DNA from: Acinetobacter wanghuae
GTDB lineage: Bacteria > Pseudomonadota > Gammaproteobacteria > Pseudomonadales > Moraxellaceae
Length of the DNA: 32,000 nt
Assembly: GCF_009557235.1 (NCBI RefSeq)
Contig: NZ_CP045650.1
Location: 1,650,001 to 1,682,000, forward strand
Reading direction: 5' to 3'
This document shows, piece after piece, positions 25,543 through 32,000 of this stretch. A model generated the notes under the pieces. That model saw nothing but the letters and a program-made list of their open reading frames with translations. It made no database searches and was not told the origin of the DNA. Every line of letters begins with the position of its first letter. Positions within the stretch are counted from its first letter, which is position 1. The translations under genes were made by a program, and so were the position numbers.

Positions 25543-25910
25543 CTCATATTAATTAACATATTTTTAGTGAATGTAAAATGCATTTCATCTCATTTTTCAT
25601 CTATTCGATTTCTGAGTAATTGGTCACCTTTGGTGAGTGGATTGATATGCAACATGAACATGCATACATGCCATATAAAAAGCCTCGAAATAGTGCGATT
25701 TTAATTACTCAGCAAACAATATTCTTCTTCTAATCAGTTACATAATTTTCCATTCATCAATGAACATCATGCTTGCTTTCAGGATGGGTGACATATTGTG
25801 TTTATTTGTAATAAAAAAACCATGCTAAAAAATTATCCTTATAATTCAACAACAAATATAGTTGCGTCATTTTTTATTTTGAATATAGGTTTTAATTTAA
25901 GGAAATATTG

Positions 25911-26912
25911 ATGAGAATCAAAAGTGTTGGTCGAGGCATGGTTCATTTGCTGCATGAATTTTGTCTAGAGCATCAATTCATTTCTCCCGTAAAACGAAAT
26001 TATGCCATTGATGAACTTATTTCATTTGAAAAATGGTTAAAAATGTTAGGGGCTGTTCAAGATCAATATCAAAAACCAGGTTTGGGAATTGAGCTTGGAA
26101 AAAGAATTCAACAATCTCACATCGGTATTTCTTCATATATTGCACAATCATGTGAAACTTTTATTCAATTTTTAGAATATGCCAATAGGTACAATCGCAT
26201 TTGGTATAACTTTATGCTGCGTGAGATTGAAGTCACGGATCAGTATTTAATTGTACATTGGGATAAACCTGCCTATTTAAATGTAGGCTTATATTCCACT
26301 GAAACTGCCATTTCTGAAGAACTACAAATCTCGATATTATTTAAACGAGTAGAGCAAATGATTGGCCATCAAGTTTTTTTTGAAAAGCTTGAACTTACAA
26401 TGAAGAAACCCGCCAATACACGTCTATACGAGGATTACTTTAAGTGTCCTATCTCCTTTGAAAGTGACAAAACTAGCTTGTATTTTTCAAAATCGATGAT
26501 GAATGTAAAACTGAGTAAACCCGATCCTTTACTCATTGAAATTCTTACACCGCAAGCAAATAAACTGTTAAATGATATTCCGACTCAGTATCAATTTATC
26601 GAACGTGTCAATCAATTGATTGTTCTTTCTATCAGCAAAAATAATCCTCAAATTGAATTTGTAGCGGATCAACTGAACATGAACGTACGGACACTTCAAA
26701 TAGAACTTAAAAAATATGACCTGACCTTTAAAGTCTTGCTGAGTAAGATTCGGCATAAACTTGCTTTAAAATATCTCTCAGATGCGGATTTATCCTTAAT
26801 GGATATTGCCTTTTTGCTCAGCTATAAGGAGCAAGCCTCTTTCAATCGCGCTTTTAGAAGCTGGTGTGATTTATCTCCGTCGGAATGGCGGAAATTAAAT
26901 GATAATAATTAA
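25911..26912 (+). CDS. AraC-family transcriptional regulator (N-terminal ligand-binding domain plus C-terminal double HTH)
   Basis: The C-terminal LSLMDIAFLLSYKEQASFNRAFRSWCDLSPSEWR is the classic AraC HTH2. AAGGA lies 7 nt upstream of the ATG at 25911. Confidence 0.85.
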   Translation: MRIKSVGRGMVHLLHEFCLEHQFISPVKRNYAIDELISFEKWLKMLGAVQDQYQKPGLGIELGKRIQQSHIGISSYIAQSCETFIQFLEYANRYNRIWYNFMLREIEVTDQYLIVHWDKPAYLNVGLYSTETAISEELQISILFKRVEQMIGHQVFFEKLELTMKKPANTRLYEDYFKCPISFESDKTSLYFSKSMMNVKLSKPDPLLIEILTPQANKLLNDIPTQYQFIERVNQLIVLSISKNNPQIEFVADQLNMNVRTLQIELKKYDLTFKVLLSKIRHKLALKYLSDADLSLMDIAFLLSYKEQASFNRAFRSWCDLSPSEWRKLNDNN

Positions 26913-27001
26913 CGTTTTTTAAGACAAAACTTCTTTATGACTTGTTGTTAACATACTTTCCATCACCTCTCCACAGTGATTTTCAGGATAGTTTCCTGTT
27001 C

Positions 27002-27037
27002 GCTATATCTTTTCCCCTTAAAGATATAGCTTTTTTT
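27002..27037 (+). terminator. Rho-independent terminator downstream of the AraC-family gene
   Basis: Perfect 11-bp stem GCTATATCTTT / AAAGATATAGC, 7-nt loop, then T7. Confidence 0.8.
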
Positions 27038-27085
27038 AATTTTAGGAGAATATAAATCTTTGAATTAAATGATTGATTTTTTACC

Positions 27086-27128
27086 CCATACCTTCGCTAT
27101 CTCCTCCTCTGGAAGGTATGGTCTTTTT
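27086..27128 (+). terminator. Second terminator-like hairpin
   Basis: 10-bp stem CCATACCTTC / GAAGGTATGG with a 16-nt loop, then TCTTTTT. There is no gene immediately upstream, so its role is unclear. Confidence 0.35.
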
Positions 27129-27149
27129 ATATCTCAAAATATTTCGTTA

Positions 27150-27233
27150 TTTCTAAATTGCATCTATAGCAGTGACCAAGCCACCAAATATATTTATTCT
27201 CTGAAATTTCTAAGGCATTTCTGACAGTGAAAC
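27150..27233 (-). repeat. Two decayed CRISPR-repeat relics (degenerate type I-F repeats) with a ~29-nt spacer-like gap
   Basis: 27150-27177, TTTCTAAATTGCATCTATAGCAGTGACC, matches the array consensus TTTCTAAGCTGCCTATATGGCAGTGAAC at 22 of 28 positions without gaps. 27207-27233, TTTCTAAGGCATTTCTGACAGTGAAAC, keeps the first 8 nt and the CAGTGAA end, with a 2-nt deletion in the middle. Both have the same orientation as the array and start 57 bp apart. Confidence 0.7.
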
Positions 27234-27353
27234 AGATAATCTTCATGGAAATTCGTGGACTATCGTCGCCTGTTTATACTGAATAAAATGATCTTGGCTT
27301 TGCTTTCACGCCTCAAGCATTCAATTCATTGCACTTAGCATTAAATGATGGAC

Positions 27354-27391
27354 CATAAAAAACCCCTTAGGATTAGTACACCTAAGGGGTT
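27354..27391 (-). terminator. Rho-independent terminator 8 nt downstream of the tRNA 3' end (minus strand)
   Basis: The minus strand reads AACCCCTTAGG-TGTACTAAT-CCTAAGGGGTT followed by a T-run. Confidence 0.8.
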
Positions 27392-27399
27392 GATTTATT

Positions 27400-27444
27400 T
27401 GGTGGGCCCACACAGACTTGAACTGTGGACCAACGGATTATGAG
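27400..27444 (-). pseudogene. 3' 45-nt fragment of a tRNA with CAU anticodon (Ile2/Met type); att-like direct repeat, 5' half missing
   Basis: The minus strand reads CTCATAA-TCCGT-TGGTC-CACAG-TTCAAGT-CTGTG-TGGGCCC-A-CCA. These are the anticodon loop, the 3' anticodon stem, the variable loop, the T arm, the 3' acceptor strand, the discriminator base and CCA. Upstream sequence (27445-27476) cannot pair with either the acceptor or the anticodon stem. Confidence 0.75.
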
Positions 27445-27538
27445 TTCTTAAGCTTATTTGTTGATTGGAGTTTACTTTTACCTATTAGTTTATTTAAATC
27501 ATACACCTAAATAACCTTACCACTTATCTTAAAAATTC

Positions 27539-27594
27539 TAAAGTTGATTAAAGTTGCTTTAAAATGACCTAATCTGCTACCTATTTGCTACCTA
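27539..27594 (+). promoter_or_regulatory. Two pairs of short tandem direct repeats just upstream of the integrase start (candidate integrase/Xis arm-type or operator sites)
   Basis: TAAAGTTG occurs at 27539-27546 and 27549-27556 (period 10). TGCTACCTA occurs at 27575-27583 and 27586-27594 (period 11), ending 4 nt before the ATG. Confidence 0.3.
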
Positions 27595-27598
27595 GAAA

Positions 27599-28873
27599 AT
27601 GAGTGTCACCACTTTTAAATTTACCACAGCACGATTAACTCAATGTTCATGTCCTGTTGGAAAGAGCTATTTCATTTATTGGGATGAGTTGGTCAAAGGT
27701 TTAGGACTAAAAACTTACCCGACATCTAAGAAGATGTTTATTTACCAATCTCGCCTTGGTGGTAAGGTTTTAAAAATCTCTATTGGCGTTTTTCCTAACT
27801 ACTCTATTGATCAAGCTAGGCAAATGGCCAAAGAATACGATGTGATGATTCTACAGGGTATCGATCCAAGATTAGAAAAAAAGCGTCTCATCGAAAAAAA
27901 TGAAGAGGAAATTAAAAACTATAAGCGTCAAAAATTACTTTTCCGAGACGTATGGGATGACTATTTAAATGCTAACAAAGAGCGTTGGAGAGATCGCACA
28001 TATCAGGATCATGTACGCTTAGCTTCAGGTAATAATGAAATTTTCAAAGGTAAGCATAGAACACTTTCTAAGCCGCAACCGATATATGCTCTTCTAGATA
28101 TTCCCTTAAATGAATTAAGTAGTAACGTGCTCTCTACATGGTTGAATCAGGAAAATCTTGAAAGACCAACCTCTGCAGCTTTGTCGTTTCGTTTAGTCAG
28201 AGCTTGCCTGAATTGGGCTGATGAACAAAGCATGTATACCGGTTTACTTCCAGATAGATCCATTCATTCGAAGAAAGTGAAGCAGGCCGTAACGCCGACT
28301 AAAGCAAAGAAAGACTGTCTGCAAAAAGAACAACTTGCTTCCTTTTTCAAGGCTGTCATTGAGCTGCCTAACCCTTATATTTCAGCTTATTTACTTGTGA
28401 CTCTGATTACTGGCGCACGACGAAACGAAATTGCCACGCTCAAATGGCAAGATGTAGACCTAAAATGGAATACCTTACACATCAGCGATAAGATTGATGA
28501 TGATGGTCGCATCATTCCCTTAACGCCTTTCGTCAAACAACTGATTCTAAATTTAGAAAGACATAATGAGTATGTATTTTACTCTGAGAAATCATCAATA
28601 GGTTATATCGTTGAACCTACTAAAAGCTTAAAAATTGCTGCATCAAATGCAGAGATTGATGACATTACCATTCATGGGCTACGGCGTTCATTCAAAACGC
28701 TATCAGAGTGGGTATCACTACCAAGTGGGATCGTTGCTCAAATTGCAGGTCATAAGCCTAGTGGCACAGAGGAAAAGCACTATACGGTTCGACCTATAGA
28801 CTTGCTGAGAAAGTGGCACATCGAGTATGAAGAATGGATTTTAAAACAAGCCCATATAAAATTAGAATTATAG
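27599..28873 (+). CDS. int: Tyrosine site-specific integrase, P4-like (DUF4102 N-terminal domain)
   Basis: The N-terminal GLGLKTYPTSKKMFIYQSRLGGKVLKISIGVFPNYSIDQAR matches the DUF4102 pattern. Catalytic residues: ARRNEIATLKW (Arg), HGLRRSF (His-x-x-Arg) and AGHKPSGTEEKHY (His and Tyr). No obvious Shine-Dalgarno sequence. Confidence 0.9.
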   Translation: MSVTTFKFTTARLTQCSCPVGKSYFIYWDELVKGLGLKTYPTSKKMFIYQSRLGGKVLKISIGVFPNYSIDQARQMAKEYDVMILQGIDPRLEKKRLIEKNEEEIKNYKRQKLLFRDVWDDYLNANKERWRDRTYQDHVRLASGNNEIFKGKHRTLSKPQPIYALLDIPLNELSSNVLSTWLNQENLERPTSAALSFRLVRACLNWADEQSMYTGLLPDRSIHSKKVKQAVTPTKAKKDCLQKEQLASFFKAVIELPNPYISAYLLVTLITGARRNEIATLKWQDVDLKWNTLHISDKIDDDGRIIPLTPFVKQLILNLERHNEYVFYSEKSSIGYIVEPTKSLKIAASNAEIDDITIHGLRRSFKTLSEWVSLPSGIVAQIAGHKPSGTEEKHYTVRPIDLLRKWHIEYEEWILKQAHIKLEL

Positions 28874-28937
28874 CTCTACCCTTTCCGCTCGAATGCAAGG
28901 CTAAATTTTCAATCAAACCAATAAAAAATTTGTTAGC

Positions 28938-31900
28938 TTTTTAAGCTGCCTATTCGGCAGTGAACAGCGGTATATCGTTTACAGATTCGTTTTGAATTTT
29001 CTCAGCTGCCTACATGGCAGTGAACCATAGAACGTTGGGTTCGACGCATTAACTACATTTCTAAGCTGCCTATATGGCAGTGAGCATCGGTAAATTTCTT
29101 GCTAAAAATGCTGCAATTTTCTAAGCTGCCTATATGGCAGTGAGCATCGGTAAATTTCTTGCTAAAAATGCTGCAATTTTCTAAGCTGCCTATATGGCAG
29201 TGAACAAAGAATTAAAAAAGGGTCGTCCTGTATTCACTTTCTAAGCTGCCTATATGGCAGTGAACGCAGTAGCAGAATCTTTAAGCCGAATAACAACATT
29301 TCTAAGCTGCCTATATGGCAGTGAACCAAAAACCCCTAGCCCCACATTATTAAAAATATTTCTAAGCTGCCTATATGGCAGTGAACATTGCATGCGATTT
29401 TCTAAAGAAAATATCCACTTTCTAAGCTGCCTATATGGCAGTGAACAACAAGACAGGTGAAGCGCGATTTATTAAGAATTTTCTAAGCTGCCTATATGGC
29501 AGTGAACTTTTTAATTAAGTAAATTTGGCTCATAGAATCTTTCTAAGTTGCCTATATGGCAGTGAACAGACATCCTCAGCGGACATCCCTTCGTATTTAT
29601 TTTCTAAGCTGCCTATATGGCAGTGAACTCATCAACAAGCACGACACGTAGCTTTGTGATTTTCTAAGCTGCCTATATGGCAGTGAACCGGATCAACTGA
29701 TTCAGCGCGTCAAAGATTTATTTCTAAGCTGCCTATATGGCAGTGAACCTTATACAGCACTCTTGGTATACATAGACAATTTTCTAAGCTGCCTATATGG
29801 CAGTGAACGTTGTTAATGCCAAAAATAGAGCCAAAGTCACTTTCTAAGCTGCCTATATGGCAGTGAACAGTCCATTGATTCTTGTGCTGTCCAAAGATTT
29901 TTTCTAAGCTGCCTATATGGCAGTGAACCTAGGGCAAGGTATTAATAACGAACCGCTGTTTTTCTAAGCTGCCTATATGGCAGTGAACCTGCAACGTACT
30001 TAATCGCGGGCTTTCGTCTCTTTCTAAGCTGCCTATATGGCAGTGAACAGGTGGGGTTTATGATTGATGAAGATTATCAGTTTCTAAGCTGCCTATATGG
30101 CAGTGAACAACCACGCTGAACGCATGTTTGATATGTATAATTTCTAAGCTGCCTATATGGCAGTGAACCATTATGGGTATTCATAAGCTTTTAGATGATT
30201 TTTCTAAGCTGCCTATATGGCAGTGAACCCAAGGCTGACAAACAAGGGTGGTGGAAACATTTTCTAAGCTGCCTATATGGCAGTGAACTCGATCATCCCA
30301 GTCATTCGTTAATTCTATCGTTTCTAAGCTGCCTATATGGCAGTGAACTACTTTGTAGGTTTCTTATCTTTCCCTTGAAATTTCTAAGCTGCCTATATGG
30401 CAGTGAACTTGTGTGTCTGATTTTCCGACAGCATCTTAGCTTTCTAAGCTGCCTATATGGCAGTGAACGGCGTGATGTTTAAAACACCACCCTCAACTTT
30501 TTTCTAAGCTGCCTATATGGCAGTGAACTTTGATGCATTTACGTTTAAAGAAATTGTTAATTTCTAAGCTGCCTATATGGCAGTGAACTAACAATCCGAA
30601 CTTGTGAACCACTTCTAATATTTCTAAGCTGCCTATATGGCAGTGAACCATCAACATAGTAGCAAAACAACCCACGCACATTTCTAAGCTGCCTATATGG
30701 CAGTGAACACATCACTGATTCAAGCTTACACCCAAATTTATTTCTAAGCTGCCTATATGGCAGTGAACTAAAATTAAAATCATCAGTACCTTTTGAAATA
30801 TTTCTAAGCTGCCTATATGGCAGTGAACGTTCCGTATTTTTATCGTCACGTAGATCTTCATTTCTAAGCTGCCTACATGGCAGTGAACGAATCAACAATG
30901 ATTGAACAGATTGATGCGATTTTCTAAGCTGCCTACATGGCAGTGAACACCATGAAGCGAAAAGCTACCAACTTATAAAATTTCTAAGCTGCCTACATGG
31001 CAGTGAACACACCACAGACACCTTGTAAACGTCTTTGGTTTTTCTAAGCTGCCTACATGGCAGTGAACATTCTGTGATTGGGCTGCAATTGTCTGTGATT
31101 TTTCTAAGCTGCCTACATGGCAGTGAACGTGCTGCGTGGTGAAGAATTCAACTCCGTCATTTTCTAAGCTGCCTACATGGCAGTGAACTCATAACCATTT
31201 TTTGGTTGTCGAGCTTCCGATTTCTAAGCTGCCTACATGGCAGTGAACGGATTGAATGACACCACGCGAGCGGGCAATGATTTCTAAGCTGCCTACATGG
31301 CAGTGAACATTTCTCATTGTTATCTCCAGTGATCGTTACATTTCTAAGCTGCCTACATGGCAGTGAACTTTGGCTTCTCGGAGAGTCCACGTCTTCTAAT
31401 TTTCTAAGCTGCCTACATGGCAGTGAACGTTCCGTATTTTTATCGTCACGTAGATCTTCATTTCTAAGCTGCCTACATGGCAGTGAACTCTTTCCAAAAG
31501 ATCAAGAACTCATTGCATAATTTCTAAGCTGCCTACATGGCAGTGAACTTAGGGGGTAAATAATATGTATTTTTCAGATTTTTCTAAGCTGCCTACATGG
31601 CAGTGAACTGGAAAGTGGCATATTTCCTTTTAAGCATTCATTTCTAAGCTGCCTACATGGCAGTGAACGTAAACCATACGAAATTGAACGTGCAGGCACA
31701 TTTCTAAGCTGCCTACATGGCAGTGAACCCTCGACGCTCTTAACGTCTGGCGATTCATCATTTCTAAGCTGCCTACATGGCAGTGAACTGTTTGATCCAT
31801 CCTCAAGCGTTGCCTTGACTTTTCTAAGCTGCCTACATGGCAGTGAACCCGTGTGCTATGAAGTCGATGAGCCACAGCCTTTTCTAAGCTGCCTACATGG

Positions 31901-32000
31901 CAGTGAACAAGTTATCGTTTATCTACCCCGTCCTTCCCCAATTTCTAAGCTGCCTACATGGCAGTGAACTTATACGATGCCTAAGGCTGATAAACAGGGA
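28938..32000 (-). CRISPR. Type I-F CRISPR array, 51 repeats, truncated by the window end; read on the minus strand with the trailer end at 28938
   Basis: The 28-nt repeat on the + strand is TTTCTAAGCTGCCTA[T/C]ATGGCAGTGAAC. Its reverse complement GTTCACTGCCAT[A/G]TAGGCAGCTTAGAAA is the canonical I-F form, with stem CTGCC/GGCAG and 8-nt handle CTTAGAAA. Spacers are 31-33 nt, mostly 32. Repeats 1-2 (28938, 28998) carry 3 and 2 substitutions, as expected for a trailer end. Repeats 3-32 have the TATATGG variant and repeats 33-51 have TACATGG. Confidence 0.98.

Follow-up and report, generated by a model that had tools for sequence, protein, structure and literature searches.

Degenerate or orphan CRISPR remnants that persist after the loss of a CRISPR-Cas system are well known, a case in point being Escherichia coli strains that have residual I-F repeats but no I-F cas genes. 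CreTA/CreR is known among the cr-like RNAs. In the regulatory mini-arrays described for I-F1 systems, which lie inside the cas locus, the stem-loops are retained (Shmakov et al., bioRxiv 10.1101/2023.03.03.530964), and in A. baumannii the I-F systems are one of several alternative islands at ssrA (Rubio et al., bioRxiv 10.1101/2023.09.20.558655). Set against these cases, the feature described here, a pair of decayed I-F repeats (the relics) near the 3′ end of a tRNA(CAT) gene, is a further and ordinary example of something already known. The relics are most likely the non-functional remnant of an older I-F array, and they lie outside the tRNA-integrated island to which the present I-F array belongs.

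The window, that is, the whole 32,000-nt stretch of Acinetobacter wanghuae DNA that was analyzed, contains both sides of this island boundary. On the backbone side, a gene for an AraC-family regulator (25911-26912, plus strand; Pfam), with terminator hairpins located by a terminator scan at 27002-27030 and 27086-27121, is the left neighbor of the segment that holds the relics. Homology of this AraC module to the loci L018 and L012-L017 ends at 27133, and homology on the conserved 3′ flank of the tRNA starts at 27341 with L004 and at 27356 with L007; between the two lies a lineage-specific backbone segment (27134-27340). Within it are relic 1 (27150-27177), a spacer-like stretch of 29 nt that we call the pseudo-spacer (27178-27206) and relic 2 (27207-27233), all read on the minus strand. 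On the same strand follow the rho-independent terminator of the tRNA(CAT) gene (27356-27389), recognized by reading the sequence and conserved with compensatory stem changes in L004 and L007, and a 46-nt 3′ fragment of tRNA(CAT) (27400-27445), the att repeat that marks where the island starts on its left. ARAGORN found no whole tRNA in the window, and no second tRNA fragment marking an older island boundary was found there at a level of at least 28/48. Two small open reading frames run over the relics, neither of which was called as a gene in any relative: 27069-27224 (plus strand) has no Pfam hit and 27127-27246 (minus strand) has no obvious ribosome-binding site on reading, and we do not take them as genes.

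The island begins with the tRNA fragment and continues with an intact gene for a P4-type tyrosine integrase of 424 aa (27599-28873, plus strand; Pfam Arm-DNA-bind_3 and Phage_integrase) and with the type I-F CRISPR array (28938-31969, minus strand), which has its trailer at the left, counts 51 repeats in the window and continues past the window end. Rfam assigned the array repeats to CRISPR-DR4 on the minus strand, so transcription of the array runs leftwards; the leader is to the right of the last window position, and the repeats at 28938 and 28998, at the trailer end, are degenerate. The tRNA terminator, the tRNA 3′ fragment and the integrase gene therefore separate the relics from the array by their coordinates, as the preliminary description of this DNA had reported.

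The array itself falls into two blocks by one repeat position, CTATATGG in the trailer half (to 30828) and CTACATGG in the leader half (from 30861), and its two commonest repeat sequences occur in 27 and 19 exact copies, respectively, in these blocks. A repeat-spacer unit is also duplicated (29058-29117 is the same as 29118-29177), with a GAGC repeat variant in both copies.

On the plus strand the array repeat reads TTTCTAAGCTGCCTAYATGGCAGTGAAC, and this was the reference for all comparisons of the relics. Relic 1 (TTTCTAAATTGCATCTATAGCAGTGACC) matches it at 22 of 28 positions without gaps and is the best non-array match in the window, the runner-up among ungapped matches to positions 1-28900 on both strands having 18/28. 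Relic 2 (TTTCTAAGGCATTTCTGACAGTGAAAC) can be aligned once 2 nt are taken as deleted and 1 nt as inserted (a surplus A close to the end), and the 8 nt of its would-be 5′ handle, CTTAGAAA, are unaltered. In gapped fitting alignments, relic 1 scored 16 and relic 2 scored 12, the two highest values found on either strand outside the array; after them came 11 and 9, and in about 120 kb of unrelated loci no score exceeded 10. Nowhere else in the 28.9 kb outside the array is there a site as repeat-like as these two, and the 22/28 match of the first and the gapped match of the second are as originally described. When used as a BLAST query, 27149-27231 aligned in register to repeat-spacer-repeat units of real arrays with E-values down to 4e-6.

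The geometry of the pair was also described correctly: the relics start about 57 bp apart, on one strand and in the orientation of the array, they have the substitution C13A in common, and they lie 1.7 kb from the repeat at 28938. If transcription runs as in the array, relic 1 would be the downstream repeat. The statement that they are in phase with the array is true of the relics between themselves, which are about one unit apart, but not of their distance from the array, since relic 1 and the array start at 28938 are separated by 1788 bp, which is no multiple of 60. Mismatches are mostly found in the central stem-loop and the repeat ends are kept (rough binomial p ~0.01, a value that is biased because the relics were spotted by their conserved ends). 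A search with the Rfam CRISPR-DR4 model recovered every array repeat of the window, the lowest at 34.4 bits, and at E-values up to 1 reported neither relic. What the relics do have is residual similarity to the repeat family, unit spacing and a single strand, as is expected of a decayed remnant. Ungapped and gapped scans of both strands from 26900 to 28940 found no decayed units beyond these two, so the search for further weak units that had been proposed gave nothing more.

Because the relic region has only ~33% GC and the repeat ends are themselves AT-rich, one might suspect a chance resemblance in AT-rich intergenic DNA. The preliminary description had thought this unlikely on a binomial estimate, and the shuffling test that we ran agrees with it: a maximum of at least 22/28 was reached in 0.05% of 2000 first-order Markov shuffles of the 28.9 kb, or about 5 per 10,000 shuffled sequences (p ≤5e-4), and never in shuffles with intergenic base composition. 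In addition, the two best gapped matches in 57.8 kb of two-strand sequence stand 56 bp apart on the same strand, and we give chance a negligible probability. Judged by these sequence comparisons, the homology of 27150-27177 and 27207-27233 to I-F repeats goes beyond chance.

A third-best repeat-like site was seen on the minus strand at 25663-25690, upstream of the AraC gene and in an orientation opposite to the relics. It matches at 18/28 with a gapped score of 11 and alone is not significant.

As relatives at the orthologous site we took contigs that encode members of the 90%-identity cluster of the window's AraC protein and that come from independent assemblies; one member was named Acinetobacter wanghuae by its source. 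In 10 contigs from other assemblies, the relic block 27140-27263 (124 nt, including both relics) is unchanged, and it always stands 166 nt from the tRNA(CAT) 3′ end (10/10 contigs). In L028 (GCA_041805055.1), the AraC gene, the relics and the terminator are followed by a whole tRNA, called by ARAGORN as tRNA-Met with anticodon CAT, and then by housekeeping genes (acyltransferase, YebC, AsnC, GST, YchF and SodB). The equivalent of the terminator at 27356-27389 here comes after an intact tRNA, and the 3′ 46 nt of that tRNA are identical to the fragment in the window. No cas genes were called in the ~9 kb that follow, and neither an integrase nor a canonical repeat was found in 11 kb of L028. This strain has the empty site.

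Other strains are occupied differently. L029 and L030 have a variant integrase of the same family after the same 46-nt fragment. L024 (GCA_048549275.1), which has the synteny of the window (LysE-FxsA-RuvC-Nnr-QueG-AraC), shares just 14 nt of the tRNA end and then runs into an island that carries a DUF3987 gene; in L025 and L026 the shared part is ~18 nt and yet another element follows. Counting the island of the window, no fewer than four different islands branch off within the 3′ end of this tRNA. The tRNA(CAT) gene is a hot spot for integration, for which a single species shows at least five states: empty, two islands of one integrase family (one of them with the I-F array) and two unrelated islands. 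With L028 empty and other islands behind the identical tRNA terminus, it follows that a strain-specific, tRNA-integrated island carries the integrase and the I-F array as its cargo. The relics lie outside that island and form part of the chromosomal backbone, on the side of the hot spot that does not vary. Integrase and array came in jointly, across the att site from the relics.

These comparisons decide against one of the two histories that had been offered, in which a 1.7-kb module consisting of the terminator, the tRNA fragment and the integrase gene (27234-28937) was inserted into the old, decaying trailer of the present array and split it. The array-like orientation of the relics, their position on the trailer side and their spacing of about one unit do fit such a split. 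It demands, however, that the relics were contiguous with the array before the integrase came, and the empty site shows that the tRNA and its terminator are their ancestral neighbors, so this history is refuted. Identical relics lie in L028 beside an intact tRNA and no array, unrelated islands of other strains begin inside the same tRNA 3′ end, the order of terminator, fragment and integrase gene is the standard left end of an island family that has unrelated left flanks in other species, and ungapped and gapped scans found no third relic and no split spacer at either junction. We consider an insertion into the array extremely unlikely. The claim that a recombinase had been active at or inside a CRISPR array does not stand either: the preliminary description would have counted relatives with the motif far from any CRISPR locus as a refutation, and relatives do carry it with no CRISPR array in the ~10 kb readable on the tRNA side.

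A comparison of the window with L028 found no differences in 27080-27263 and 8 and 15 differences in the two flanks. The relic block shows no polymorphism among 11 sequences, in a sample with few haplotypes, and both of its flanks are polymorphic; mosaic recombination accounts for an invariant block between polymorphic flanks. The 136 bp next to the att site (27264-27399) hold 15 of the 23 differences from the empty-site strain, and these separate the window from all other strains (L024-L032). The 15 differences probably came in with the island by homologous exchange, as a recombination tract.

Outside this group of strains, we found no other version of the relics. Exact look-ups of the window's AraC protein and of a 74-aa protein encoded nearby gave no match. 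A scan of GTDB genomes with the AraC protein gave only homologues at 26-44% identity and no sister-lineage version, no copy of the relic segment was found in JGI metagenomes or IMG/VR, and a plasmid BLAST search with 27130-27400 matched the terminator hairpin only.

Some observations on the neighborhood of the site are recorded here in their own right. Between L028 (1563-2870) and L007 (8469-9850), which is from another Acinetobacter lineage, the tRNA(CAT) gene is inverted relative to the acyltransferase-YebC block, and this may represent an inversion at the hot spot. In L018 (1536-2643), whose AraC protein is 98% identical to that of the window, an IS30-family element begins exactly where the AraC-module homology ends (window equivalent 27133/27134), and the contig ends inside this element. 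In L012-L017, an AraC orthologue at 85% identity and its terminator have very different neighbors, a P-type cation ATPase in front and small genes, an IS630 and an Imm40 gene behind. The AraC module, too, could be a mobile or accessory element.

The integrase places the island in a family that is not confined to this species, with integrases 75-80% identical to that of the window found in other Acinetobacter genomes and in metagenome contigs. Three of these loci (L003, L004 and L007) share one layout, consisting of the terminator, the tRNA 3′ fragment found in the window, a conserved stretch of ~150 bp, the integrase gene and then variable defense cargo, for example a type I restriction-modification system or McrBC with a Schlafen-like helicase. 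Homology among the integrase loci runs from the terminator to the integrase stop codon, and the left flanks are all different. Terminator, fragment and integrase gene are therefore the usual left end of a tRNA-integrating island, and in the window the array is the first cargo. The junction from the integrase gene to the array trailer recurs in two other sequencing samples (L001 and L002). As in tRNA-integrated P4-type islands generally, an arm-binding tyrosine integrase sits at the island edge, and a copy of the tRNA 3′ end marks the boundary, with an empty site in a relative to match it (46 nt identical to the L028 tRNA). Acinetobacter plasmids have I-Fv (Cas5fv/Cas7fv) loci with exactly the repeat of this array, which suggests that the island may carry an I-Fv system.

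Tests for a remaining function of the relics were almost uniformly negative. Predicted folding energies are -2.1 kcal/mol for relic 1 and -1.3 kcal/mol for relic 2, with z near 0 and no better than shuffles. Real repeats, including the degenerate ones of the trailer, form a 5-bp Cas6f hairpin at -7.8 to -10.5 kcal/mol, and the relics have lost it. No promoter-like site was found upstream of them on the minus strand, where the tRNA terminator sits. As a candidate leader remnant, 27234-27355 was compared with I-Fv leaders and with the flank of a plasmid orphan array; the similarity is not significant (p 0.08-0.7), although a MAFFT alignment had looked suggestive. For the pseudo-spacer (TTTCAGAGAATAAATATATTTGGTGGCTT), neither the window nor related plasmid I-Fv loci, which have the repeat of the array, contained a seed- and PAM-compatible target. 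The preliminary description had asked for a comparison of the 29 nt between the relics with phage and plasmid databases, and this produced no credible protospacer, the matches having E-values of at least 0.07 and belonging to unrelated hosts. Features of a functional type I-F array, namely a match to the repeat model, the Cas6f hairpin and a leader with nearby cas genes, are all wanting in the relics. Two observations lean weakly towards a function, namely that mismatches spare the repeat ends and the octamer of relic 2, and that the block 27080-27263 is unaltered relative to L028 between flanks that differ; the former is biased by the way in which such relics come to be noticed, and the latter fits a recombination tract.

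In their architecture, the relics nevertheless recall a functional mini-array that would produce a regulatory cr-like RNA, of the CreR/CreA or I-F1 kind, which would be loaded into an I-F Cascade and repress a partly matching promoter. They are two repeat-like sequences around one short spacer, the spacer-proximal positions are kept to the extent that CTTAGAAA, the 8 nt of the upstream repeat next to the pseudo-spacer, is intact (downstream, GGTCACTG stands in place of GTTCACTG), and there are zero polymorphisms in 11 sequences. Elements of this type have moreover been documented in I-F1 systems, including those of Acinetobacter (bioRxiv 10.1101/2023.03.03.530964). Those that have been described keep their stem-loops, however, whereas the relics do not, and the terminator in place of an upstream minus-strand promoter and the failed search for a seed/PAM target in the window and in related I-Fv loci also speak against a working element. 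Co-inheritance with a CRISPR-cas locus is lacking as well: the relics are present in the empty-site strain and beside unrelated, non-CRISPR islands, so they do not travel with a cas locus. We regard a functional mini-array as very unlikely. It is highly unlikely, too, that a living mini-array is kept in the backbone beside the hot spot and acts as a cr-like RNA or decoy on the Cascade that incoming I-F islands bring, for example by lowering the expression of these islands or by influencing which of them settle there, though if true this would explain the intact 5′-handle octamer, the conserved repeat ends and the absent polymorphism.

Having exactly two repeat-like copies and one spacer, the pair could also be imagined as a neo-CRISPR, in which Cas1-Cas2/3 would have integrated a spacer off target and thereby duplicated a repeat-like sequence of the backbone. 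Fresh duplicates should resemble each other most, but the relics agree with each other at only ~19/28 and with the canonical repeat at 22/28 (relic 1) and ~20/27 (relic 2), and they have only one derived change in common. No relative has a single pseudo-repeat either, as all 10 contigs that carry the block hold the same two relics. This origin has a very small probability in our estimate. Two derived relics that are both nearer to the canonical repeat than to each other, with one shared change, fit the independent decay of two true repeats, and we infer that the relics descend from a real array.

We return to an old array as the source, and think it quite likely that the relics are its non-functional fossil, separate in origin from the present array. 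They would be what is left of an old I-F array, its last two repeats with the spacer between them, decayed by ~20% substitutions and small indels. Their place is in the conserved backbone of this Acinetobacter wanghuae lineage, on the downstream side of the tRNA(CAT) gene at a distance of 166 nt. In the strain of the window, an island with a P4-type integrase has recombined into the tRNA 3′ end, and its left edge is the 46-nt tRNA fragment, followed by the integrase gene and by the large I-F array as the first cargo. The original tRNA 3′ end and its terminator, with the relics behind them, were displaced in this way to the left border of the island.

How the old array had come to the site is a separate matter. 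The second history that had been offered, an earlier occupation of the tRNA hot spot by another CRISPR-bearing element, is compatible with our results insofar as the hot spot has been observed directly in the relatives, but the arrival of the old array on an island is unproven. An older island that had used this tRNA would be found left of the newer one, its tRNA-proximal end would supply the terminator that follows the tRNA, and deletion of the rest of it could leave a ~200-bp stub like the relic segment. As there is neither a second tRNA fragment nor a less-decayed version of the relics, an old island and a chromosomal array lost by deletion are indistinguishable; we put the chance that an earlier mobile element brought the old array to the hot spot at close to, or slightly short of, even. 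A counterpoint to the fossil is that an I-F relic just outside an island with an I-F array of the same repeat family is a coincidence, for which repeated use of the hot spot is the only explanation offered.

The main value of this analysis is a correction, in that the supposed recombinase inside an array is the ordinary boundary of a tRNA-integrated island beside an older CRISPR fossil. The locus also serves as a clean, compact illustration of a hot spot at a tRNA(CAT) gene. Should the fossil derive from an earlier island, this would suggest more than one visit of CRISPR-carrying islands to the site, and such repeated visits would be of modest interest for the spread of I-F systems in Acinetobacter, with no bearing on an open mechanistic question.

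Like the orphan remnants known from other bacteria, the relics are a few decayed repeats of a recognizable subtype that have no cas genes next to them, are fixed in the backbone and seem inert; unlike them, the remnant in the window consists of two repeats only, at ~75-80% identity, and stands beside a tRNA hot spot that now has a live array of the same repeat family. With regulatory mini-arrays and cr-like RNAs they have in common the two repeats around one spacer and the degenerate distal repeat, and differ from them in having no stem-loops and no target that was found, in lying neither within a cas operon nor beside one and in being present without the CRISPR island.

The plasmid I-Fv (I-F2) loci of Acinetobacter (pANC7974.1, an A. 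lwoffii plasmid and p8E072658) are close to the array of the window, with a 28-nt repeat that is identical or 1 nt off, degenerate trailer repeats and a tyrosine integrase adjoining the locus. Their integrases, however, are only ~24% identical to that of the window and lie at the cas1 end, and the plasmids have no sequence like the relic segment. On one A. baumannii plasmid (L020, CP061706.1; 5426-6900) we observed an orphan array of ~18 repeats of the same family, 16 of them identical to the repeat of the window and two, at the trailer, degenerate. To the right of this array, the flanking sequence shows homology to the cas1-integrase intergenic region of pANC7974.1 (L021, NZ_CP156769.1), which implies that the leader and all cas genes were deleted and the array was left beside the integrase.

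Compared with the I-F islands at tRNA and tmRNA hot spots in Acinetobacter, the island of the window differs from those at ssrA in its host gene, tRNA(CAT), in the species and in the integrase, and its cas genes are outside the window. In other respects the two are alike: the I-F system is one alternative island at a small-RNA gene, a direct repeat of the 3′ end of that gene marks the boundary, and the other occupants are restriction-modification or other defense islands.
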